64,000 bases of DNA from an uncultured Thermoleophilia bacterium (GTDB taxonomy: Bacteria; Actinomycetota; Thermoleophilia; UBA2241): the NCBI GenBank assembly GCA_963790185.1, contig CAWBNR010000007.1:14832-78831 (forward strand), read 5' to 3'. Shown here piece after piece: positions 1-31,252 of the stretch. The notes beneath the pieces are model-generated. The model saw only the letters and a list, made by a program, of their open reading frames with translations, made no database searches and was not told the origin of the DNA. A program made the translations under genes and the position numbers. Each line of letters begins with the position of its first letter. The stretch's first letter is position 1.

Positions 1-25
1 CGAACACGCAAGGTTCGTGTCAAAC

Positions 26-515
26 ATGACGGGCGAAGTAGCTGGGATGCTCAATGGATTTCAGCGGGCCCACAGGGAAATGTCCGTCAAAACCAAGCGA
101 GACAACGTCAAATTCGTGACCGATCTGTCAACGGAAGTGTCCGGAGTGCTCACAGGCTTTCACCGGGCCCAGGCAGAGATGGCTGCGAATATGCAGGAGA
201 GAGAACCAAGCGTTCGTGGCCAACACGGCAAGGGCCGTCTCAGGGCTGCTGAACGGATTTCACGATGCACGTTCCCAGATGGCCAGGACATCCCAATCTG
301 AACGAAATCAGTTTGTCACTGGCCTGAAGAAGTCGGTCAAAGGGATGAGACAGGAAGTCGCCGAGGATTTGGCCGGTGCACGGCAGGCCTGGAATGGCCC
401 ATCGCCGGCGATGCAGAAGGCCAAACAGGAAGAGGAACGAAAAGCCAGTGTGGTCGCAGAACAAAAGGCCAAGGCTGACAGCCGAACTGAAGGCGAGGGC
501 GGAAGCGGAGCATAA
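26..515 (+). CDS. 33-residue-repeat protein, GvpC-like gas-vesicle surface protein (split into ORFs 17-301 and 216-515 by an apparent 1-nt indel near 206)
   Basis: Three tandem ~33-aa repeats with motif V-x-G-x-L-N/T-G-F-x-x-A-x-x-x-M...F-V-T/A. The repeats continue in register only if the reading frame shifts at ~206. Sits at the head of a gvp cluster where gvpC is found in Serratia/cyanobacterial-type clusters. Confidence 0.4.
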
Positions 516-636
516 GGCAAGGGCCGAAGCCGAGTTCAGAGCAAAGGAAGCCTCGGAAAGAGAAAAGCAGGAACAAAGCAAGAAGAAGACACAAAGGTGA
601 CACCAAAAGCGAGTGAGCGCAAATCAGAGGTCGACG

Positions 637-988
637 ATGACTGACATGACGGTCGGGCATGCAGAAGTGACAGAGCTAACGTGCTCTTTCTGTGGCGGCA
701 CGGGAAAAGATCCGTTCGGGATAATGTCTTGGATCTCATCGTGCTGCGTATGTGGTGGCAAGGGTACGGTGAGAATTCGGAGACCCTACACCAGGTGCGC
801 TCACTGTCAGGGGACGGGAGCGATCAAGACCTTCACCTGTACAGCCTGCAAGGGCACAGGTTACGTCCCGCTTCCGTCACACCCGACCTCTACTTGCCCG
901 GAATGCCACGGGTCTGGGGACGACGGTTCCAATTCCTGCAATGACGTGTCTCAAGTGCAAGGGAAGGGGATTCGTTGCTCAGATTTGA
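637..988 (+). CDS. DnaJ-type zinc-finger protein (six CxxCxGxG repeats, no J-domain); apparent frameshift near 925
   Basis: Repeats CSFCGGTGKD, CCVCGGKGTV, CAHCQGTGAI, CTACKGTGYV, CPECHGSG, and in the shifted frame CLKCKGRGFV ending at 986-988. AGAGG ribosome-binding site before the ATG at 637. Confidence 0.55.
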
Positions 989-1246
989 ATATGCTGAAGC
1001 GCCTTGCGAATGACGATCATGTTCAATAGCGCTTCAGGATCAATGGACCAAAAGGTTGCATCATAACGAGACATTGTCGGAAAACCCCGGGCATCAGATG
1101 GTGCGCTGACGCGGTCATCTTCATTCACGTTCAGTATAACCCTGGACTCGGTGGGCAGGATAGCCCGACTGGCCGGCTCAGCAGGTCATCGGCGTTATCC
1201 CGTGTGTCGAGTGACCACACATCAACCAAAGGAAACGGAACAAACC

Positions 1247-2225
1247 ATGAGCGGCAGCAAATCGAATACTGCAACTGTGGCTCCAGAGATGATCCGGCCA
1301 GAGGGTGACGACGTAGAGCCCGTGCCGAGTGAACAGTTTGTGTGCACCCCACATGTAAAAGACTTGGCTGACCGAGCAATGGCTTACCTGGCGGTGGGTT
1401 ATTCGGTGCATTTTGCGGGAGCAGCAGGGACCGGCAAGACCACTCTCGCTTTTCACGTGGCGGCCAAGTTGGCGCGGCCCGTTATTCTCATCCACGGGGA
1501 TGATGAGTTCGGGAGTTCCGATCTGGTAGGGCGGGATTCAGGGTACCGCAAATCCAAGCTGGTGGACAATTTCATTCATTCTGTGGTCAGGACAGAAGAG
1601 GAGATGCGAAGTTTCTGGGTAGACAATCGTCTCACCACCGCGTGCCGCGATGGTTACACCCTCATTTATGATGAGTTCACTCGCTCCAGACCGGAGGCGA
1701 ACAACGTGCTTCTGAGCATTCTGGAGGAAGGGATTCTGAATCTTGCCCAGTCTGCGCAGGACGGGCGAAGGCTACCTTGAGGTTCATCCGTCGTTCAGGG
1801 CCATTTTCACGTCCAATCCCGAAGAGTACGCCGGGGTCCATAAAACCCAGGACGCCCTGCTGGATCGTATTATCACCATCAATGTGGATCATTATGACCG
1901 CGAGTCCGAAGTGCAAATTACGATGGCAAAGTCGGGTCTTCCCAGGTCTGATGCGGAAGTGATCGTGGACATCATCAGGGAGTTGCGTCTTGTGGGGGTA
2001 AACAACCACAGGCCCACGGTACGGGCGTGTATAGCCATAGGGAAGGTGCTGGCGCATCTCGGTGGCACATCTCAGGCTAACGATGAGATCTTCAAATGGA
2101 TCTGCCGAGATGTCCTTACCCGGGACACGGTAAAGGTCACCAGGGGCGGCGAACCGCTCATGCCAAAGAAGGTGGACGAAGTCATCCACAGAGTGTGCAA
2201 GCAGAAGATGGATCGTCGCCTTTAG
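1247..2225 (+). CDS. gvpN: Gas vesicle protein GvpN, AAA+ ATPase (CbbQ/NirQ family); 1-nt frameshift near 1745
   Basis: Walker [10 protein letters not shown], then [14 protein letters not shown] followed in the +1 frame by [29 protein letters not shown], which is typical of GvpN. AAGGAAA ribosome-binding site before the ATG at 1247. Confidence 0.85.
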
Positions 2226-2241
2226 TCGAAGGGGAAAAACG

Positions 2242-2574
2242 ATGAGCATTCGAACCAAATCAAACCTGCGAGGCCTAAGAGATATTCGCACCCGATCGGG
2301 GAGAGTAGATCGCTCTGACGTGCCCTATATGGCGTACATGAAAATCAGCTGCCTCGAAATGGAGAGGGCCAGACGAGACCAAGAGAAGTTCAGCGCACAA
2401 GCGAGAATCAGAAACCTTGATAAGCGGCTGGAAGAAATTGACCTGGAAAAAGGCGACCTTTTGGTGCGCCTTGGGGAGCGTCCTTCCTCCCGTCCCTTAA
2501 GGTCAACCGGTGGCTCGCACCAACCCGTCCGAGCCAGAGGCGAATCCAAACCTGGATTCACGATCAAGTACTGA
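2242..2574 (+). CDS. Hypothetical coiled-coil protein inside gvp cluster
   Basis: ORF with GGGGAAAA ribosome-binding site; charged, coiled-coil-like sequence (EMERARRDQEKFSAQARIRNLDKRLEEIDLEKGDL). Confidence 0.35.
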   Translation: MSIRTKSNLRGLRDIRTRSGRVDRSDVPYMAYMKISCLEMERARRDQEKFSAQARIRNLDKRLEEIDLEKGDLLVRLGERPSSRPLRSTGGSHQPVRARGESKPGFTIKY

Positions 2575-2761
2575 GATTCTTGGAAAGGGCCTAGGTGTGG
2601 AGCATGTCAGCGGTGAAAGGTTTCAAACAACTACGAACAAGCAGCAGTATCAAGGGGTTCCGGTCATGCCGGCACTCGACTGCAGTCCCCTTGGAACTCC
2701 TCGATAGAGGGAGAATTCGGGCGAGCGAAACAAGGCGGCTCTGGGAAGGGGTCCGGCAGTC

Positions 2762-3097
2762 GTGGCTTCACTGCAAGGCAGACGTTCCCGGAAGTATCCG
2801 GCACAAATGAGTTCCCAGGTCAGGGAGTCAATCGACCGTCAAAAAGAGAGTGCGACAGGGAGGTTAGCCGTGAAAGTCAATTGTATATCTTGCGGCCACA
2901 GTATTTCGCTCGACGAAGCGTACGACGACTTCTCGGGATATGTAAAATGCTACGTCTGCGGGGGAATGCTGGAAATCAAGACTGCAGACGGAAAGCTTAG
3001 CTCTGTCAACTTGGCAGGGGTTGCGCTGTCGGGGCAGAGCAACCAAGCGGCTCCGTCGATGTCAAGTCGACAGTCAGGGCAGGGGCACCTGACCTGA
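2762..3097 (+). CDS. Zinc-ribbon hypothetical protein inside gvp cluster
   Basis: CISCGH...CYVCGG: two CxxC pairs ~20 aa apart. An alternative start M lies at 2807. Confidence 0.4.
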   Translation: MASLQGRRSRKYPAQMSSQVRESIDRQKESATGRLAVKVNCISCGHSISLDEAYDDFSGYVKCYVCGGMLEIKTADGKLSSVNLAGVALSGQSNQAAPSMSSRQSGQGHLT

Positions 3098-3183
3098 GAG
3101 AGTCCCCTACTCAAGGGAAAAACACCAGAGCACGAACACGTCATGTGCCGAACTCCGGGCAATGAGAGCGCTGCGTCACAATA

Positions 3184-4002
3184 ATGGTTCAGAGGACCCA
3201 CGGTGCAACTTCCGACAAACGAATGGGATGTGCCATGCAAAAGTCAGGCAAAAGCCCACACGGCTTAACAGGTCGATATCTGTACGCCATTGTTCCCGGA
3301 TCCGATGCAAAGTCATACGGTAGCCTTGGTATCAACGGTGGCAGGGTCTATACGATTGCGGACGGTGACGTCGCGGCGGTGGTCAGTGACGTCATCAACC
3401 AGAAGATTCGGCCGGAGAGGCGTCATTTTGCGGCCCACCAGGGAGTGTTGAAGAAGCTCATGGAGGACACCGACCTTCTGCCCATGTCCTTCGGCATCAT
3501 TTCAGCAGGACCTAAGGCTGTTCGTGGACTTCTGGAGCGCAATCGCGACACGATATCCACAGAACTCAAACGGGTCTCCGGCAAAGTGGAAATGGGACTC
3601 AAGGTATCGTGGGATGTTCCCAACATCTTCGAATACATGGTCAGCACCCATACCGAATTGCTGGAAGCCCGGGATCGATTGCTCAGCAGCCAACGCAAGT
3701 CTACGCAGGATGAAAAGATCGCGATCGGCCAACTGTTTGAAGATCTGCTCAACGCTGACAGGGAACGCCACACCGGCGTGGTAGAGGAAGTAATCGGCCC
3801 CAAGTGCTTCGAAGTCAAGCGAAACAAATGCCGCGATGAACGGAATGTCATGACTTTGGCTTGTCTCGTTGGCCGCAGCTTTCTTTCGGATTTTGAAAGC
3901 GTGGTACTCGAGGCTGCAAGCCTTTTTGATGACAATTTTGCGTTTGATTACAACGGGCCCTGGGCACCTCACAACTTTGTCCAGGTTGAGGTGGAAGTGT
4001 AG
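3184..4002 (+). CDS. gvpF: Gas vesicle protein GvpF/GvpL family
   Basis: YLYAIVP motif near the N-terminus and a C-terminal GPWAPHNF; length and position between gvpN and gvpG. Possible internal starts at 3223 and 3235. Confidence 0.8.
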   Translation: MVQRTHGATSDKRMGCAMQKSGKSPHGLTGRYLYAIVPGSDAKSYGSLGINGGRVYTIADGDVAAVVSDVINQKIRPERRHFAAHQGVLKKLMEDTDLLPMSFGIISAGPKAVRGLLERNRDTISTELKRVSGKVEMGLKVSWDVPNIFEYMVSTHTELLEARDRLLSSQRKSTQDEKIAIGQLFEDLLNADRERHTGVVEEVIGPKCFEVKRNKCRDERNVMTLACLVGRSFLSDFESVVLEAASLFDDNFAFDYNGPWAPHNFVQVEVEV

Positions 4003-4057
4003 GCGGCTGTTGCCTCACGCAACAGGCTCCTGGGACCACGCGAGGGTGGAGCACACG

Positions 4058-4315
4058 ATGCTATTAGTAGACGATATTCTGCTGTTTCCCTTCAAGGGCC
4101 TGCTGTGGGTTTTTGAAGAAATTTACGAGGCCGCGGAACAAGACCGCCGTGAGGAAGGCGAGAGGATCACCCATGAACTCCAGGACCTCTACGCGATGTT
4201 GGAACGCGGCGAGATAGATGATACGGAATTCGATCGACGAGAGGTTGAACTTCTGGACCGGCTTGATCGATTCCAAGAGAGTTTATCCCCTGCTGAAGAG
4301 GATGAAGAGGATTAA
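4058..4315 (+). CDS. gvpG: Gas vesicle protein GvpG
   Basis: MLLVDDILLFPFKGLLWVFEEI matches the GvpG N-terminal signature; acidic C-terminal tail. Confidence 0.7.
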   Translation: MLLVDDILLFPFKGLLWVFEEIYEAAEQDRREEGERITHELQDLYAMLERGEIDDTEFDRREVELLDRLDRFQESLSPAEEDEED

Positions 4316-4469
4316 GAGGATTCAGAGGGATATGACCACTGAGTCTCTTCGATTGAAGCGAGGGGCGATCGACGCATCATGAATCTGAATCTGAGTTTGT
4401 GGTTTGTGGCATGAGCCATGACGGTTCAAGAGGTATGGAGTGCTATTCATATAGACCGCGGAGAAGGTC

Positions 4470-4691
4470 ATGCGAGATCTGGAACTGGACGACGTTGAAC
4501 ATGTCACCTTATGCGAGGCTCTCGATCGGGTCCTGAACAAGGGAGCTGTCGTGGTTGGCGAAGTGACGATTTCCGTCGCGAATGTGGATCTGATCTACTT
4601 GGGCCTGCAGCTGGTCCTTACGTCTATAGACACATCTGAAACGATGAAGATGTCGTCGCGTCAAGCTGAAGCGCCTTGTGAAGGATTGTAA
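4470..4691 (+). CDS. GvpA/GvpJ/GvpM-family small hydrophobic gas vesicle protein
   Basis: LCEALDRVLNKGAVVVGEVTISVANVDLIYLGLQLVLTSIDT follows the GvpA-fold pattern (LDRxLDKG...I(S/A)SVET). Confidence 0.65.
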   Translation: MRDLELDDVEHVTLCEALDRVLNKGAVVVGEVTISVANVDLIYLGLQLVLTSIDTSETMKMSSRQAEAPCEGL

Positions 4692-4763
4692 TTCTGAAGA
4701 GCGTTCGTGGGCAATCGACCAAAAGATTGCAACATGACGACACGTTGTTGGAAAGAAGCGGCC

Positions 4764-5204
4764 ATGGGGTCACGCTCTGACAAGTTTATTTCCCGCAACG
4801 CCAGCGTCCTATCATCAGCACTTGTTGCCGGAGAAGACATGCAACGCATGCACGTTCGCAAAATCGATTCTGACTCCCTTGATGAATTCGCGAGGGTGAT
4901 GAGAGGCCAGGGGAACGGGAGTGTCGGCCGAGCGCGGCAGTCCGGGCGGCTGGAGCTCGATCAGAAAAGCGTCAAGAACGGCTTGGGGCAACTCGTCTTG
5001 ACTCTGGTCAGACTGCTCCATGAGCTACTGGAACGTCAAGCCATTCGACGCATGGAGTCCGGTTCGTTGTCCGACGCTGAACTGGAGCGGCTTGGCACAA
5101 CTTTGATGTTGCAAGCGCAGGAAATTGAGCGACTCCGCAAGGAATTCGGCTTGGAGGAAGAAGACCTGAATCTCGATCTAGGCCCCCTCGGAAAGCTCGT
5201 GTGA
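4764..5204 (+). CDS. gvpK: Gas vesicle protein GvpK
   Basis: LVLTLVRLLHELLERQAIRRME is the GvpK signature. The ORF opens at 4707; the start is chosen at the internal M. Confidence 0.75.
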   Translation: MGSRSDKFISRNASVLSSALVAGEDMQRMHVRKIDSDSLDEFARVMRGQGNGSVGRARQSGRLELDQKSVKNGLGQLVLTLVRLLHELLERQAIRRMESGSLSDAELERLGTTLMLQAQEIERLRKEFGLEEEDLNLDLGPLGKLV

Positions 5205-5216
5205 GGAGACCCCAAA

Positions 5217-5483
5217 ATGCCTATGCAAAGGTCCACTCGTCATTCGATAGAGAGCACGAATCTCGCTGATCTGCTTGAGCGAATACTGGACAAGGGAATT
5301 GTCATCGCCGGAGACATCAAAATCAGACTTGTCGACGTGGAACTCCTCACTATTCAGATAAGGCTGGTGGTGTGTTCCGTAGACAAGGCCAAGGAAATGG
5401 GCATGGATTGGTGGGTCAATAATCCGGCATTCCAGAGGCAAAAAATTGAGGCCGTGGCACCGCAACCGACCGGTGCTGCCTGA
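5217..5483 (+). CDS. GvpA/GvpJ-family gas vesicle structural protein (GvpJ-like, C-terminal DWW)
   Basis: LADLLERILDKGIVIAGDIKIRLVDVELLTIQIRLVVCSVDKAKEMGMDWW. Confidence 0.7.
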   Translation: MPMQRSTRHSIESTNLADLLERILDKGIVIAGDIKIRLVDVELLTIQIRLVVCSVDKAKEMGMDWWVNNPAFQRQKIEAVAPQPTGAA

Positions 5484-6120
5484 TACATGATGGCCGGCCC
5501 GCGAGGACGAGGTGATTGTGGTGATGGCACCAGGGGAGGAGCGCTTTCACCCGTGTGATCCTGTAATCTGGGATCTCCTGCACGCGCGTCCGGGCGGGCA
5601 TTCTCATCTCCGCGACGGCCAGGAGGCTGTTGCGCAAGGGGTTGCAGCCTGGAAGCACGGTTTCAGGTGAGGCGTCTTCCTTGTGGAGCCACGAAGCGAC
5701 GATGACCTCATCGATGCCATCTCACGCCACGTTCTCGAGAAAGCCCCACAGACACACGGAAGATTGGGCGACCGCCTCCCAGCCGGTAACCAATGCAAGA
5801 AGAATCGACATAACCGGGGACGCTGAATCCACATTCACGGTCATGAGACTGCTACTGTTGGCGCGTGGAGGACATCGCACGGGCGATTTTCTCGCTTTGC
5901 TAGGGGCCTGTCGCGAGACTCCAAACGTGGGGGCAATCGTGCTATTCAGGGTCTCTCACCGCCATCTCTGACTCACCGTCCGGCTCCTAGGAGTCTGACA
6001 TACTAGGCTTTTCCGTTTGGGATTTCGAGTACACATCAAAACTTCGACCCGAGCCTGCTACGTTGTCGGGGAGAGCATTGCGTTACGCAACAGACTCCTA
6101 GGGTGCTTCAGGATGAGACA

Positions 6121-7099
6121 ATGACCAAAGAAGACTTGCCAGGGTTCGATTCTCTTGACGAACCAGACACCCCGCAGCATCAGCTGACAGGTGCGGCCAC
6201 ATCGACAGAGACGATTGACCTGAGCAGTCTGTTTTCCCAGGATGTCTACTCTTCCGGCACGTTTGATTTGAGCAGCGTAGGGTCCACTTCATTTGGACGT
6301 CTTTTGGATGCATTGCCTGTGCCCGCGATTCTCATCGATCAGTGGCACCATGTGGGGTTCGCCAATCGGTCTTGCAGGAAGCTGAGTCCCGGTTACGAAA
6401 GGATGCGCGGGGTCCCGTTCCTGGACTTTCTCCCTCGCCCCACGGATGCAGAGCGGGAGCGAGTACCTGGTTGACAAGACAACTGCTCTTCTAGAAAAAG
6501 TATTTGAGACCAGAAAGCCACAAGTCGCAGAAACCATCCTGGAAATCCACAAAACCAGAATTTGGGCTCGCATGCATTTGAGGGCGGTTCGCATTGCGTC
6601 GGATCGACACCTGCTGGTTCTCATTGAGGATCTGACCAATGAGAAAAAGCAAATCGAATTGAGTCGGAGACAGGAAAACGCGTTCCGGGAAATGCGCCGT
6701 GACTTGATGGCGCGCCTGGACGAGGCGAATTCAGAGCTCTATCGAACAGGGCAACGCTGCAAACGCGAGGCAGAGGAACATTTGCGAACTCGGAAAGCAT
6801 TACGGATTGAAGAACAAAAATCCAAGATGCTCTCAGAACTGGGATGCTTCGCCACTGCCGTGGTCGCATCGACGGGGACTTTCCAATACATCGACCGCAG
6901 ATTCCGAGACATGTTTGGCTTCGAGCTGACCGATCTCCCCAACTTCGGCCACTGGATCATATGGATGGGGTCTGACGCCAATCCTTTGGATCGTATGTGG
7001 GAGGATTCACTTGAAACGCTGAACCAACCGGACGAGGAGAGAATGGCCCCTGCTCATTGTACCGTGCTGTGCCAGGACATGAACCAGAAAAGAGGTTAA
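6121..7099 (+). CDS. PAS-domain sensor protein (no kinase domain); apparent frameshift near 6460 joining ORFs 6103-6474 and 6446-7099
   Basis: LLDALPVPAILIDQWHHVGFANRSCRKL is a PAS core; the downstream frame continues protein-like sequence. Confidence 0.5.
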
Positions 7100-7238
7100 C
7101 ATCAACGGGTTGAAACTTGCTGACGGGCACTATTTCATCATCTGTGAAGAAGCCGAAGGACACAGAGGCGAATAACGAAAGTCAAGGTCTTCGAAGCGAC
7201 GTTTCCCCCGGAGCCGAGGGCGTGTAAGGGCTCCATCT

Positions 7239-7616
7239 TCATGGCAAGAAGCCGTGAAGCATCCGGATCACATCCTCATGCCGAAATGGTTTGGAAATGA
7301 AACCCGATACAGATCCTTCGTCCATGGCCCTCCGAATATTGACGTCATCTTTGTAATAGTATCCGGAAATCATTACTATATGTATCGAAGGGTCCATAGA
7401 TTTGATTCGCCTGGCCAGATCTAACCCATCCATATCATTTAGCTTAACGTCTAGGAGCGCAATGGTGAACCGGGTGGACTCCACTAATTTAAGGGCAGCC
7501 TCACCGCTCTGAGCGGTCCTAAGTGCAAAGCCCTTTTCTGCCAACAGGTTTTCCAGAACCCAGCACATGCCGGGTTCGTCATCGACGATAAGCACAACAG
7601 GATTGGATGACTCCAT
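7239..7616 (-). CDS. Single-domain response regulator (CheY-like receiver)
   Basis: VVLIVDDEPG ... LLDVKLNDMDGLDL ... MISGY. The ATG at 7616 follows the histidine kinase gene. Confidence 0.8.
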   Translation of the reverse strand: MESSNPVVLIVDDEPGMCWVLENLLAEKGFALRTAQSGEAALKLVESTRFTIALLDVKLNDMDGLDLARRIKSMDPSIHIVMISGYYYKDDVNIRRAMDEGSVSGFISKPFRHEDVIRMLHGFLP

Positions 7617-7633
7617 ATGACTCGCCTCGCGTG

Positions 7634-9177
7634 TTACAAGAGTGGTAGTTGAACGGAAAAGATCGTTCCCTTGCCTTCCATGCTCTGAACCTGTACATTT
7701 CCCAGATGCTGCCTTACGATGGAATAGCATATCGAGAGACCCAAGCCCGTGCCCTTGCCCACAGGGGACACGGTAAAAAATGGGTCGAATATTTTTTCGA
7801 GATGCTTAGTCGAAATGCCGAAGCCGGTGTCTTCGACGCCTACCAGAGCCCAGTTCTCAGACCTGCGTGCAGAAACGATGAGCCTGCCACCGTCGGGCAT
7901 GGCGTTGATGGCATTCAAGAAGAAATTCAGAAACATTTGCTGAAGAAGGTTTGCATTACCGTGCACGAACATCTCTTGGTCAGGCAGATCCACAGACACG
8001 GAAATCTTTTCGATCTTTGCCTGGTTCGATACCAACTGTAGGGAATCATGGATCACATCCAGCAGATTGACCGCTGCCATCTCTATGCTTGAAGATGGCC
8101 GAGCGAACCGTAGCAGATTTTCAATTATGGAAGAGGCCTTTTCTATTCCCGCGAGCAGTCTACCGATGCATTCCTCACGAAGCTCAGGTTTGATATCTCG
8201 GTCCGTCAGGAATTGTGCTGCTGAAGAGCACACAGCGAGAGGGTTCCGAATTTCGTGAGCTATGCCGCCCGCCATCACGCCGAGTGCCGCAAGTTTTTGC
8301 GACTGCAGGAGCTGCATTTCCAGTTTTCGATGTTCGCTCAGGTCTCTGCCCACGGCCACGACACCCACGGACGCGGGGACGCTCATCTTTCATGGCAGAG
8401 AAGACCCAACTGATCGGTATTTCGCGACCATCCTTGGTGATGAGCCCCCATTCTCCGGTCTGAGACGTATCTCTGACCTTCAAATCGCTGAAGACTTTCC
8501 TCAGTTCCTCCTTTTCCGAGACGCATCGTTCAAAAAAAGAGCAGCCTTTCACTTCCCATGATCGGTAGCCCGGTAAGTTTCTCCGCGGCAGTGTTCCAAG
8601 TCAAAATCAGTCCCTCGGAATCGGTTGAGAGAACCACGTCTCTCGCGCTTTCCACTACGCTCGCCAAATGGCGTTCAACCCGCCGAACCTCTTCGCTCAA
8701 CCTCACCTGTTCGGTGACATCGTCCATCAGCAGGATGACTCTCTCCACCTCTCCGTGCCACGCGAACGGAAGAATACGGTAATAATAGGTGCGGATGGGA
8801 ATACCCGGAGCACGGTAGGTCATCCGGTCGCCTCTGATCGCGAGATTCTTGCCAAAGACTTCGCGGACCTTGCCGGTTATGTCGATGTGTTCGATGATGG
8901 CTTCGGGTAGCACCTGTTCGAGCTTCTGGCCTATCACTTCCTGTTGAGTCCTGCGGCTCTTGGTAATGAAGTTCCTGTTTGCAAAGACCACCTTCAGGTC
9001 TCTGCTCACAAAGAGGACCGATGAAGGGATGGATTCGAGAAACATCCCGAACATATCTCGGTACCGATGCGGATCGTCTTGTCCCCATTGTTCCAATCCG
9101 GTCAGATCCATGGTGGCGTCCACCTCCGTTTTCACGACGAATTGGGCTGTCAATCTGGTAAGCAAACAGTGTGCCAC
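7634..9177 (-). CDS. PAS/PAS sensor histidine kinase (HisKA + HATPase_c); two apparent frameshifts (~8390 and ~8540)
   Basis: H-box AHEIRNPLAV, and N/G boxes (NAINAM, GTGLGLSI). The upstream ORFs 8184-8552 and 8530-9177 encode PAS segments in other frames. An alternative start lies at 9111. Confidence 0.8.
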
Positions 9178-9383
9178 CTTCGATCGCGCAAACCACGTCC
9201 CGGGTTATAGCTGTGGCCAAAGTTTCTGAGCTCATGGCTCGACTGTGGCGGTACACCACATGCAAAGCTACCTGAGACAGAAATTCGGGCAGCCTTGGGA
9301 AGAGCGACCAACCGGCACTCCACAGGTCGCGTCTCCCGAAACGCGCTGCGGCATCGGTCACGAAGCAGTCACGAGGCCGAGAC

Positions 9384-10312
9384 TCTAGAAGTTAACCTGG
9401 TCCATACCCTTGAGCCCAAGAATTCTCCTTGCATCTGCCGGGGTAGCCACCTCGCGGTTGAGCATGTCCGCGAGATGAACGATCTTTTGCTACGAGTTCC
9501 GCGTTACTTTTCGCAAGTCGGCCCTTTTGGATGTAGATGTTGTCTTCCAGGCCCACCCTCACGTGACCGCCCATGTGGATTGCCATGGTGGAGAGGTTGA
9601 TCTCGGCTGCACCCACACCGATGACAGACCACGTGAAGTTGTCCCTGCCGAAGAGGGTTTCAGCCTTGGTGGTCAAATACGTGAGATCTTCCGGTGTTCC
9701 TCTGATAGCTCCGAGAACTCCCATAACGAACTGAAGGTGCAGTGGTGGCTTCATCAGGCCTTCAGTGACAATGTGGTCAAGATTGTACAAATGCCCTACG
9801 TCGTAGATTTCCAGCTCCGGCTTGGTGCGATTCTCTTGAGTTACTTTGCAGAGATATTCGAAGTCCTTGAAAGTATTTTTGAATACGAAATCCTTGCTCA
9901 TTTCGAGATAGGCTTTTTCCCAGGGATACTTGAATTCCGTGATGTACTTCAAAGCAGGGTGCAGGGCAAAATTGATCGACCCCATGTTGAAGGAACACAT
10001 CTCCGGCTTGAAAAGGGGAACAACTTGAGCACGCTCCTCCACGGTCATGAGCACCGAACCGCCGGTGGTGACGCAAATCACCACGTCGGATTGTTCTTTG
10101 ATGCGGCCGAGGATTTCACGAAAATGGTTCGGGTCCGACGACGGAAAACCGTCTTCGGGCCTGCGCGCGTGGATGTGCACAATTGCAGCGCCAGCTCGAG
10201 CAGCTTCAATGGCCGAATCTGCAATCTGTCGCGGTGTGAGGGGCAGATAGGGCGTCAACGACGGAATGGTTGCGGCGCCACTAATGGCAGCAGTGATGAT
10301 GAGCTTTTCCAT
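9384..10312 (-). CDS. kce: 3-keto-5-aminohexanoate cleavage enzyme (Kce, BKACE/DUF849 family); 1-nt frameshift near 9487
   Basis: MEKLIITAAISGA... is the typical BKACE N-terminus. The C-terminus continues as IVHLADMLNREVATPADARRILGL in the +1 frame down to a stop at 9384. Confidence 0.75.
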
Positions 10313-30647: not shown

Positions 30648-30650
30648 TCG

Positions 30651-31252
30651 CGGTCAAAGACGCGTACTTCAGAGGGGGCGTCGACGCGCTCGAAGAGGTG
30701 TCCGGTCGCCTCCTCGGCGAGCACGAAGGCGGGCACGCGCAGCATCTCCGCGGCGTTGAACGCCTCGACGGTCAGGGAGAACATCTCAGCGACGGACCAA
30801 GGGGCGAACGCCACCACTTGGTAGTCGCCGTGGCTGCCGTACTTGACGGTCATCACGTCGCCGCCGCCGACCTTCGTCGCCTGTCCGGTGCTGGGTCCCG
30901 CCCGCTGGACGTCGACGACCACGAGCGGGGTCTCGGTGAAGGCCGCGTACCCCAGGCACTCCTGCATGAGGCTCAGGCCCGGTCCGGACGTGGCGGTCAT
31001 GGCCTTCACGCCGGACCATGAGGCGCCGGCCACGGCCGCGATGGAGCCGATCTCGTCCTCCATCTGGATGAACGCCCCGTCGTGGGCCGGCAGCAGCCGG
31101 GCCAGGTTCTCCATGATCTCCGACGAGGGCGTGATGGGGTAGCCGGCGTAGAAACGGCAGCCGGCCGCGATCGCCGCCTCGGCGGCGGCCTCGTTACCCG
31201 ACATGTAGCGGGGGCCGGCGGGGATGCCGGTGGGTGTCGTGGAATACGGCAT
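30651..31252 (-). pseudogene. 2-oxoacid:ferredoxin oxidoreductase alpha-subunit (KorA/PorA-like) N-terminal fragment, truncated at the composition junction
   Basis: GNEAAAEAAIAAGCRFYAGYPITPSSEIMENL is the TPP-enzyme N-terminal module. Only ~200 aa are present where ~370-600 are expected; homology stops where GC drops. Confidence 0.55.

Follow-up and report, generated by a model that had tools for sequence, protein, structure and literature searches.

The region 613-3097, at the start of a 64,000-nucleotide stretch of contig CAWBNR010000007.1 (assembly GCA_963790185.1; hereafter the window), lies within a gas-vesicle (gvp) gene cluster, as established by Pfam and NCBIfam gene identification. 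The cluster contains, directly upstream of gvpN, a gene whose product, judged from its sequence, is a stand-alone DnaJ-type cysteine-rich zinc-finger protein devoid of a J-domain, designated here ZnF. The linkage of this gene to gvp clusters, and to gvpN in particular, is tight and crosses phyla. On the basis of this homology and conserved linkage, we propose that ZnF may be a gas-vesicle-dedicated chaperone or adaptor acting together with GvpN, a reading to which we assign a probability of roughly 0.5. We infer its zinc binding, its client, its partnership with GvpN and the assembly step at which it would act.

A three-frame translation of positions 613-1030 revealed five CxxCxGxG motifs in frame 1, between 682 and 918 (CSFCGGTG, CCVCGGKG, CAHCQGTG, CTACKGTG and CPECHGSG), and a sixth, CLKCKGRG, in frame 2. 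In all six frames of the window this pattern occurs eight times, with six occurrences within 682-970, compared with a mean of 1.1 per window in shuffled sequence; the motif cluster is real and far beyond chance. The ATG at 637, preceded by AGAGG 6 nucleotides (nt) upstream, is a likelier start than the GTG at 613, the stop codon occupies 986-988, and about 15 residues precede motif 1. The features of the gene are as follows:

637..988, forward strand: ZnF gene, encoding 116 amino acids (aa) once a 1-base insertion near 931 is removed
682-705, 742-765, 796-819, 838-861 and 895-918, forward strand, frame 1: ZnF motifs 1-5
925..940, forward strand: single-base insertion (frameshift) in ZnF, BLAST gap at 931
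947-970, forward strand, frame 2: ZnF motif 6

The first-pass annotation of this DNA had described a protein with six such motifs and no J-domain, resembling the zinc-finger module of DnaJ. The former two points are confirmed by the translation and by Pfam, and the resemblance by profile and, locally, by predicted fold. ZnF scored 43.1 bits against PF00684 (DnaJ_CXXCXGXG; cut-off 32.7) and 40.4 bits against DUF5351/YuiA (cut-off 27), the latter being a 29-position profile and hence a motif-level match. Pfam gave no match to the J-domain (PF00226). The G/F region and the C-terminal client-binding domains I/II are absent, the protein ending 5-10 residues past motif 6. The NCBIfam DnaJ equivalog models were not passed (12-41 bits versus cut-offs of 338-585), and neither were the two anti-TRAP models (Pfam, 28.7 versus 32; NCBIfam RtpA, 51.5 versus 65). 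The suggestion that ZnF is BSD2-like is not supported in the sense of family membership, since it reached only 13.6 bits (E = 0.081) against BSD2_CRD (PF25436), below the Pfam cut-off of 27. A 28-member ZnF profile matched the cysteine-rich (CR) domain of Escherichia coli DnaJ (1EXK) with E = 8e-7, colinearly over motifs 1-4. The Gvp-family models of Pfam and NCBIfam recognized neither ZnF nor three small proteins encoded downstream of gvpN (cc110, p70 and zr75), while they matched gvpN, F, G, K and the GvpA-family genes of the same window. PF27659, which is listed on some homologues, was rejected: it corresponds to CHP02642, which is no gvp family, and the match is faint and unrelated.

The AlphaFold2 (AF2) model of ZnF, built from the family alignment (predicted local distance difference test, pLDDT, 86.8; predicted template modelling score, pTM, 0.76), is confident and contains short strands and beta-hairpins flanking the motifs, as would be expected for the CR fold. 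In a Foldseek search of the PDB with this model, 12 of 12 matches were DnaJ-type zinc fingers (BSD2, the cysteine-rich domain of DnaJ or DnaJA3, DnaJA2 assemblies and anti-TRAP), yet they were local, with E values of at least 0.2; a good local superposition was obtained only for anti-TRAP (0.5-1.7 Å over 27-32 residues). All 12 Cys residues are conserved among 28 ZnF homologues, with the exception of one sequence without motif 2. The family signature comprises an invariant CxFCxGxGxDPFG[IV]MS at motif 1 and GDD after motif 5, and the DPF element is retained even in the most distant relatives. By homology, ZnF probably binds three zinc ions, and the motifs may be paired either sequentially or in the manner of DnaJ (1+4, 2+3 and 5+6).

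ZnF shares the CxxCxGxG repeats and the profile match with the CR domain of DnaJ (1EXK; PF00684), and its predicted hairpins are of the kind expected there. ZnF differs from DnaJ in (i) having six motifs instead of four, (ii) consisting of only 116 aa, with no J-domain, G/F region or C-terminal client domains, (iii) containing loops of its own (DPFG[IV]MS after motif 1 and GDD after motif 5), and (iv) being encoded in gvp clusters and not beside dnaK. Its closest functional analogue may be BSD2 (6EKB/6EKC), a J-less Rubisco assembly chaperone, which is likewise a stand-alone DnaJ-type zinc finger tied to one large assembly. Structure 6EKB was the top Foldseek match in the PDB, but with E = 0.2 and template modelling (TM) scores of 0.20/0.36; unlike ZnF, BSD2 has four motifs, is a chloroplast protein with RbcL as its client, and has no AAA+ partner. 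Anti-TRAP/RtpA of Bacillus (2BX9, 3LCZ) and YuiA/DUF5351 resemble ZnF in being small proteins composed only of CxxCxGxG motifs around zinc. Anti-TRAP, a 53-aa regulator of TRAP, has one zinc site, in contrast to the 116 aa and six motifs of ZnF, and no link to gas vesicles is known for either anti-TRAP or DUF5351.

A word-indexed search yielded 193 close homologues of ZnF (identity 54-83%, typically 104-140 aa), most of them unnamed and the others labelled "DnaJ-class molecular chaperone", "YuiA family protein" or "CR-type domain-containing protein". An exhaustive profile search yielded 376 representatives (50% clusters) with E <= 1e-10, including 24 with E <= 1e-30. A scan in which each GTDB species was represented by one genome detected relatives in at least 226 genomes, and the genome-locus counts given below refer to the best 80 of these 226. 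The loci, numbered with the prefix L, were mapped by tblastn with 16 proteins of L001. This locus (L001/L006) is the closest relative of the window that was found (DNA identity 83-91%); its contig, 305 kb long, comes from the metagenome-assembled genome (MAG) of an uncultured "delta proteobacterium". Its ZnF gene is intact, and the indel and substitution comparisons given below refer to it.

The setting of ZnF is a gvp cluster in 80 of 80 genome loci. Where the contig extends far enough downstream (72 loci), ZnF is followed on its own strand by gvpN as the next gene in 68 cases, and a GvpC-position repeat protein is encoded directly upstream in 60 of 72. The hosts belong to the Thermodesulfobacteriota (Desulfomonilaceae, Syntrophaceae, Syntrophobacteraceae and Desulfobaccales), including the isolates Desulfomonile tiedjei (homologue with 65% identity) and Desulfobacca acetoxidans, and to the Acidobacteriota, Methylococcales/Crenothrix, Marinobacter, Brocadiaceae, Calditrichota, Nitrospinia, Verrucomicrobiota and others. 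Between host groups ZnF identity is only 55-70%, which fits horizontal movement of the whole cluster. Four loci deviate from the common arrangement: (i) in L048 (Methylococcales), with the gene order of the Serratia cluster described below, ZnF follows the last GvpA-family gene; (ii) in L085 (Alcaligenaceae MAG) a divergent ZnF of 118 aa lies between gvpK and gvpJ; (iii) L058 (Acidobacteria MAG, 3402-5300) contains a GvpN-like AAA_5 gene, a 106-aa open reading frame (ORF) and ZnF after two signalling genes, with no other gvp genes within 5-10 kb; and (iv) L064 is a rearranged cluster.

The linkage extends to more distant relatives. Among five distant representatives (E = 1e-17 to 1e-26), one was on a contig too short to judge, and in the other four ZnF adjoins AAA_5 (three) or ArsA (one), with overlapping stop and start codons between ZnF and its neighbour in three of the four (among L087, L088, L089 and L091). 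A metagenome scan seeded with 6 sequences provided 80 further loci of this distant clade (identity to the query 40-50%), of which 69 have gvp-type neighbours, while 9 of the other 11 are contigs of at most 2.4 kb. ZnF adjoins GvpN in 53 of 59 of these loci, and 24 loci carry 2-5 copies of ZnF, up to five in tandem. Thus, the co-occurrence of ZnF with gvp genes that the first-pass annotation had put forward for a neighbourhood analysis is evident, and its homologues are not randomly distributed with respect to these genes.

The genes accompanying ZnF in the window, all on the forward strand, are:

1..615, forward strand: 3' part of the GvpC-position gene, truncated by the window start; insertions/deletions (indels) near 194, 480 and 588; no Pfam families
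1247..2225, forward strand: gvpN, MoxR-type AAA+ (AAA_5, TIGR02640), with one inserted base at about 1743 that splits it
2242..2574, forward strand: cc110, 110 aa, with conserved termini and one long predicted helix
2604..2810, forward strand: p70, basic protein of 68 aa, an ORF conserved by tblastn
2870..3097, forward strand: zr75, zinc ribbon of 75 aa, start GTG 2870 taken from homologues
3184..4002, forward strand: gvpF/L (PF06386, 210 bits), exact start uncertain
4061..4315, forward strand: gvpG (Pfam/NCBIfam)
4470..4691, forward strand: GvpA-family protein, GvpJ/S-like (Pfam/NCBIfam)
4707..5204, forward strand: gvpK, start probably downstream of 4707
5217..5483, forward strand: GvpA-family protein, GvpJ-like (Pfam/NCBIfam)

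As had been noted earlier, the gene next to ZnF is gvpN (1247-2225). The gene order of this widespread, "proteobacterial-type" gas-vesicle cluster begins with a sigma-54 activator, GvpH/small heat-shock protein (sHSP), a CDC48-like AAA+ protein and GvpF/L, and continues with GvpA, the GvpC-like protein, ZnF, GvpN, cc110, p70, zr75, GvpF, GvpG, GvpJ, GvpK and GvpJ. The L001 counterpart of the truncated GvpC-position gene (9189-9980) encodes a repeat-rich protein of 263 aa, with repeats of the form xVSGLLNGFHxAxxxM and a K/E-rich tail; it may be a GvpC analogue. Scans of 1-6200 for promoters (sigma-54 and sigma-70) and terminators revealed nothing exceeding chance, a result weakly compatible with one long operon.

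Three conserved small genes (cc110, p70 and zr75) separate gvpN from gvpF. Two of them, encoding the 110-aa protein and the CxxC...CxxC protein, had been recognized in the first-pass annotation, and the third, p70 (2604-2810), had been overlooked. For cc110 we found 65 homologues, all annotated as "hypothetical", and no Pfam family. It is conserved at both ends, with DIRTxSGRV...PYxAYxKISCLEMEKARR in the N-terminal part and GFKI[KR]Y at the C-terminus, separated by a linker that varies; AF2 predicted a single long helix at residues 29-76 (pLDDT > 90), the remainder being disordered. In 55 of 60 loci cc110 follows gvpN. The motif of p70 is [IV][KR]GFRSC[RK]HSTAVP...LDRGR...RRLW, again with no Pfam family. 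Of the 80 genome loci, about 63 gave a tblastn match to p70, and, wherever both neighbours were mapped, it lies between cc110 and the zinc ribbon or a second ZnF paralogue (ZnF2). In D. acetoxidans p70 is an annotated gene of 67 aa, and it is related to a 72-aa ORF that comes before ZnF in L089, a distant cluster.

The zinc ribbon zr75 has 62 homologues, mostly of 57-81 aa where the ORF was cleanly read, all of which begin with MK[IV]NCxSCGH. They begin at a site matching GTG 2870, and therefore the start at 2762 that had been assigned to this ORF, which overlaps p70, is spurious; the protein has 75 aa. Its pattern, (M/V)KxNCxSCGH...DDAYDDFxGxVKCYVCGxxLEIKT followed by a variable tail, defines a four-Cys zinc ribbon (C5, C8, C27 and C30), the second CxxC being replaced by CLC in a few homologues. 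It is present in 52 of 60 loci, and in Pfam it gave only sub-threshold zinc-ribbon matches. Both the helix protein and the ribbon are therefore conserved in related clusters. In 10 of 60 loci the paralogue ZnF2, a second six-motif protein of 120-150 aa, is encoded between cc110/p70 and the ribbon (e.g. L030 11946-12314, L067 11934-12386 and L084 4715-5176); paralogues also occur in L102 and L140. It appears that cc110, p70 and zr75 are co-conserved small partners of the assembly step in which ZnF would take part.

A published cluster of the same overall type is that of Serratia sp. ATCC 39006, with the order gvpA1-C-N-V-F1-G-W-A2-K-X-A3-Y / gvrA-gvpH-Z-F2-F3-gvrB-gvrC (PMC4982088). It shares with the ZnF clusters a sigma-54 activator, GvpH, the CDC48-like GvpZ, three GvpF/L and three GvpA-family genes, and in both a gene for a small protein follows gvpN (gvpV or cc110). 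From this position and the published data (PMC4982088), cc110 is probably the counterpart of GvpV, and it has the Serratia-type position also in the Methylococcales locus with the Serratia gene order (L048). The earlier view that the small proteins are non-canonical agrees with the missing Pfam and NCBIfam Gvp matches, and it probably has to be qualified for the coiled-coil protein. In Serratia, deletion of gvpV or gvpN resulted in only small bicones, both genes being needed for the bicone-to-cylinder step (PMC4982088). Conservation of GvpV was stated for clusters of beta-, gamma- and delta-proteobacteria, D. tiedjei having been part of the comparison (PMC4982088).

No gene is listed between gvpC and gvpN of Serratia, and none of its named proteins is described as a zinc finger. 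Only GvpV and GvpZ were reported as conserved with the D. tiedjei cluster (PMC4982088), which argues against GvpX, GvpY and the unannotated Serratia gene Ser39006_001280 (PMC10344784) being relatives of ZnF, p70 or zr75. The Methylococcales ZnF, which has the position of Serratia GvpY, gave 38 matches when used as a homologue query, none of them named or from Serratia. A search of a plasmid collection returned no gvp match, only chance DnaJ-like matches.

Chaperone-like products of this cluster type include the sHSP GvpH, a CDC48-like double AAA+ protein and the MoxR-type GvpN; an ArsA/Get3-like ATPase is encoded in 27 loci. In many related clusters it is a duplicated ArsA/Get3-like ATPase of about 640-660 aa, encoded after gvpG and ahead of the GvpA-family genes (e.g. 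L003/L004 13702-15663). The window and L001 lack it, 155 bp separating gvpG from gvpJ.

In the distant clade, the GvpF/L protein of 20 metagenomic gvp clusters ends in a J-domain with the canonical HPD. The loci with this fusion (GvpF/L-J) are:

L092, 4864-5919; L094, L096, L099-L102, L117, L121, L122, L125, L127
L141, L145, L152, L156, L158, L165, L167-L169

The one protein checked against Pfam, that of L092, scored 38.1 bits for PF00226 (cut-off 27.8). In 10 of the 20 loci ZnF is encoded directly upstream of the GvpF/L-J gene. A full-length Hsp70 gene lies inside the gvp cluster at two loci, L089 5032-6750 (= L094 7032) and L102 at about 1922; the L089 protein is DnaK-like (572 aa, 583 bits), and its cluster also encodes a GvpF/L-J protein, an sHSP-like protein and a ZnF whose gene overlaps that of an ArsA-like ATPase. 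In this sister clade, therefore, the J-domain and the CR zinc finger, the signature domains of type I DnaJ, are found on separate and often adjacently encoded gvp-cluster proteins, an arrangement which suggests one DnaJ with its domains split among Gvp proteins.

On the basis of interaction studies, GvpF has been proposed to be a chaperone of the hydrophobic GvpA2, and GvpN to be the ATPase by which GvpA2 is made ready to enter the elongating vesicle (PMC11445434). In the role that we favour, ZnF would be an ATP-independent client-binding module (a holdase or an adaptor) that maintains its client in an assembly-competent state, the client being the very hydrophobic shell proteins of the GvpA family or some other Gvp protein. 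It would present this client to the MoxR-type AAA+ protein GvpN as the shell grows from bicone to cylinder, analogously to the zinc-finger domain of DnaJ with respect to DnaK, or BSD2 with respect to Rubisco. In some lineages it might also act with GvpF/L-J and Hsp70. A wider version of this proposal is possible, though tentative: clusters of this broad type would encode their own dispersed Hsp70 co-chaperone machinery, in which ZnF passes new GvpA-family proteins to GvpN. The J-domain would then reside on the client-binding GvpF/L and the DnaJ zinc finger on one or more free ZnF proteins, and some clusters would add a private Hsp70, sHSP, CDC48-like unfoldase or Get3/ArsA-like ATPase. In the clade of the window, from which the J-domain is absent, ZnF would work directly with GvpN plus the GvpV-like cc110, p70 and the zinc ribbon.

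Several observations weigh against a dedicated chaperone role of ZnF. The clade of the window has neither a J-domain nor an Hsp70 in its cluster, and for this reason the picture of a split DnaJ is borrowed from the sister clade. To our knowledge, the well-studied clusters of Halobacterium, Anabaena and Bacillus megaterium make gas vesicles without a ZnF-like protein, so ZnF is not universally required. The linkage counts run from ZnF loci toward gvpN, not from gvpN clusters toward ZnF, and gene adjacency is an indicator of shared function, not of mechanism. The fold matches are local, with Foldseek E values of 0.2 or more and TM scores of about 0.2-0.5, and the Foldseek search of the PDB returned no solved structure with a six-motif, three-site architecture. 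The remaining points concern gene context: in L048 ZnF lies directly upstream of a gvrA-like sigma-54 activator gene; in L085 (9941-11905) another copy forms part of a 654-aa protein, an in-frame fusion with a hybrid kinase of PAS-HisKA-HATPase-receiver type; and in L155 (9974-10390) and L164 (about 6028) it is found among genes for a sigma-54-dependent response regulator and PAS/histidine kinases, with no gvp genes within 6-10 kb.

These contexts would suit a regulatory antagonist, i.e. an anti-TRAP-like ZnF that modulates the GvrA-like sigma-54 activator or the GvrB-like histidine kinase and thereby tunes gvp expression, and anti-TRAP is indeed among the best matches of ZnF (RtpA, 51.5 bits; Foldseek 3ld0, root mean square deviation 1.7 Å over 32 residues). 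We nevertheless consider this unlikely. Both anti-TRAP cut-offs were missed, the kinase fusion is a single case and the regulator-only settings are 2 of 80, while the usual neighbour, in the 68 of 72 and 53 of 59 loci mentioned above, is the ATPase gene gvpN within the structural operon.

Position within that operon, between the GvpA/GvpC-like genes and gvpN, and co-conservation with structural genes could also mean that ZnF and the zinc ribbon are built into the vesicle as a minor structural or nucleating part, a zinc-stabilized scaffold located, for example, at the cone tips or at the polarity-reversal seam. A zinc-finger motif reported at the C-terminus of haloarchaeal GvpC (PMC9501494) is a precedent for zinc modules in the shell. 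ZnF, by contrast, resembles no shell protein; its homology is to chaperone-type zinc fingers, and it recurs beside J-domain, Hsp70, sHSP and AAA+ genes, which makes a structural role rather unlikely.

It is also conceivable, though improbable, that ZnF is a true pseudogene in a gvp cluster decaying in this genome, with real frameshifts in ZnF, gvpN and neighbouring genes. Gas-vesicle loss is common in cultured strains. The frameshift that had been flagged in ZnF is real in the sequence: compared with L001 there is one extra base near 931, and its deletion restores a protein of 116 aa, the modal length of the family. In gvpN the insertion at about 1743 places TIGR02640 positions 1-141 and 140-260 on two ORFs in different frames. 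In total, at least eight single-base coding indels relative to L001 were detected in 9.2 kb (near 194, 931, 1743, 6467, 7080, 8379, 8568 and 8954), and the genes broken within 1-9200 are the GvpC-like gene, ZnF, gvpN and those for a PAS protein and a histidine kinase. This density, about 1 per kb, in regulators as well as in gvp genes, fits uncorrected long-read error, and the genes that were hit are intact in L001, as they are in the relatives generally. Moreover, the out-of-frame parts appear to be under purifying selection. For gvpN relative to L001, the ratio of nonsynonymous to synonymous substitutions (dN/dS) is 0.07 in the part preceding the frameshift and 0.04 in the part following it (dS about 0.4-0.5), and the out-of-frame motif 6 of ZnF is identical to that of L001 at the amino acid level, despite five synonymous differences. 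Because of this selection and the number of similar indels, the ZnF frameshift is probably an assembly error, as in uncorrected long-read MAGs, although it may be a very recent real mutation.

Programmed frameshifting at about 931 was considered and rejected, since at the 80 genome loci the tblastn match to ZnF runs through residues 1-116, or almost all of them, with no change of frame, and at least eight comparable indels affect unrelated genes of the window. The called ZnF genes of L001 and D. acetoxidans are intact single ORFs.

A function as thiol-disulfide oxidoreductase or redox/zinc sensor coupling vesicle formation to oxygen, modelled on the plant DnaJ-like zinc-finger proteins LQY1 and CYO1, is highly improbable: twelve conserved Cys in CxxC pairs and the oxygen-responsive gas-vesicle production of Serratia (PMC4982088) would agree with it, but ZnF is cytoplasmic, all of its Cys residues belong to CxxCxGxG motifs of the canonical zinc-binding kind, cysteines that could serve as targets are few or absent in the Gvp shell proteins encoded here, and the cluster has no thioredoxin-like partner.

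Two further observations concern the window outside the first genes of the cluster. A perfect match to the sigma-54 promoter consensus, TGGCACACTGTTTGCT, is located at 9161-9176 on the minus strand, 5' of genes for a histidine kinase and a response regulator on that strand; across the window such matches are no more numerous than expected by chance. The G+C content, about 55% over 1-30.6 kb, rises abruptly at about 30,650-30,750, within about 150 bp, and is about 70% over 30.8-64 kb; in the second part the G+C content of third codon positions (GC3) is up to 0.9. Two sequences of different origin may be joined here, as a result of concatenation of MAG contigs, chimeric assembly or the presence of a foreign island.

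The DnaJ-type zinc-finger domain is already known, and so are J-less assembly factors of this kind, i.e. BSD2 and its relatives. In a full-text search of the gas-vesicle literature we found no description of a six-motif ZnF as a gas-vesicle component or of its coupling to gvpN; p70, zr75 and the GvpF/L-J-domain fusions are likewise undescribed in the literature searched, and the ZnF family, p70, zr75 and these fusions are not mentioned in PMC9501494, PMC4982088, PMC10344784 or PMC11445434. These findings are relevant to the field of gas vesicles and acoustic reporters. Only 5 of 15 mined gas-vesicle clusters were expressed in E. coli or mammalian cells (PMC10344784), and when clusters are refactored as acoustic reporter genes, ORFs that are small and lack annotation, as do ZnF, p70 and zr75, are easily lost.

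How the hydrophobic GvpA stays soluble and enters the growing vesicle is an open question. Current models involve a chaperone-like GvpF and an energy-dependent GvpN, the helpers of which are not known (PMC11445434). ZnF, locked to gvpN across many phyla, is a concrete and testable candidate for such a helper, and the GvpF/L-J proteins and the cluster-encoded Hsp70 of the sister clade are further candidates.

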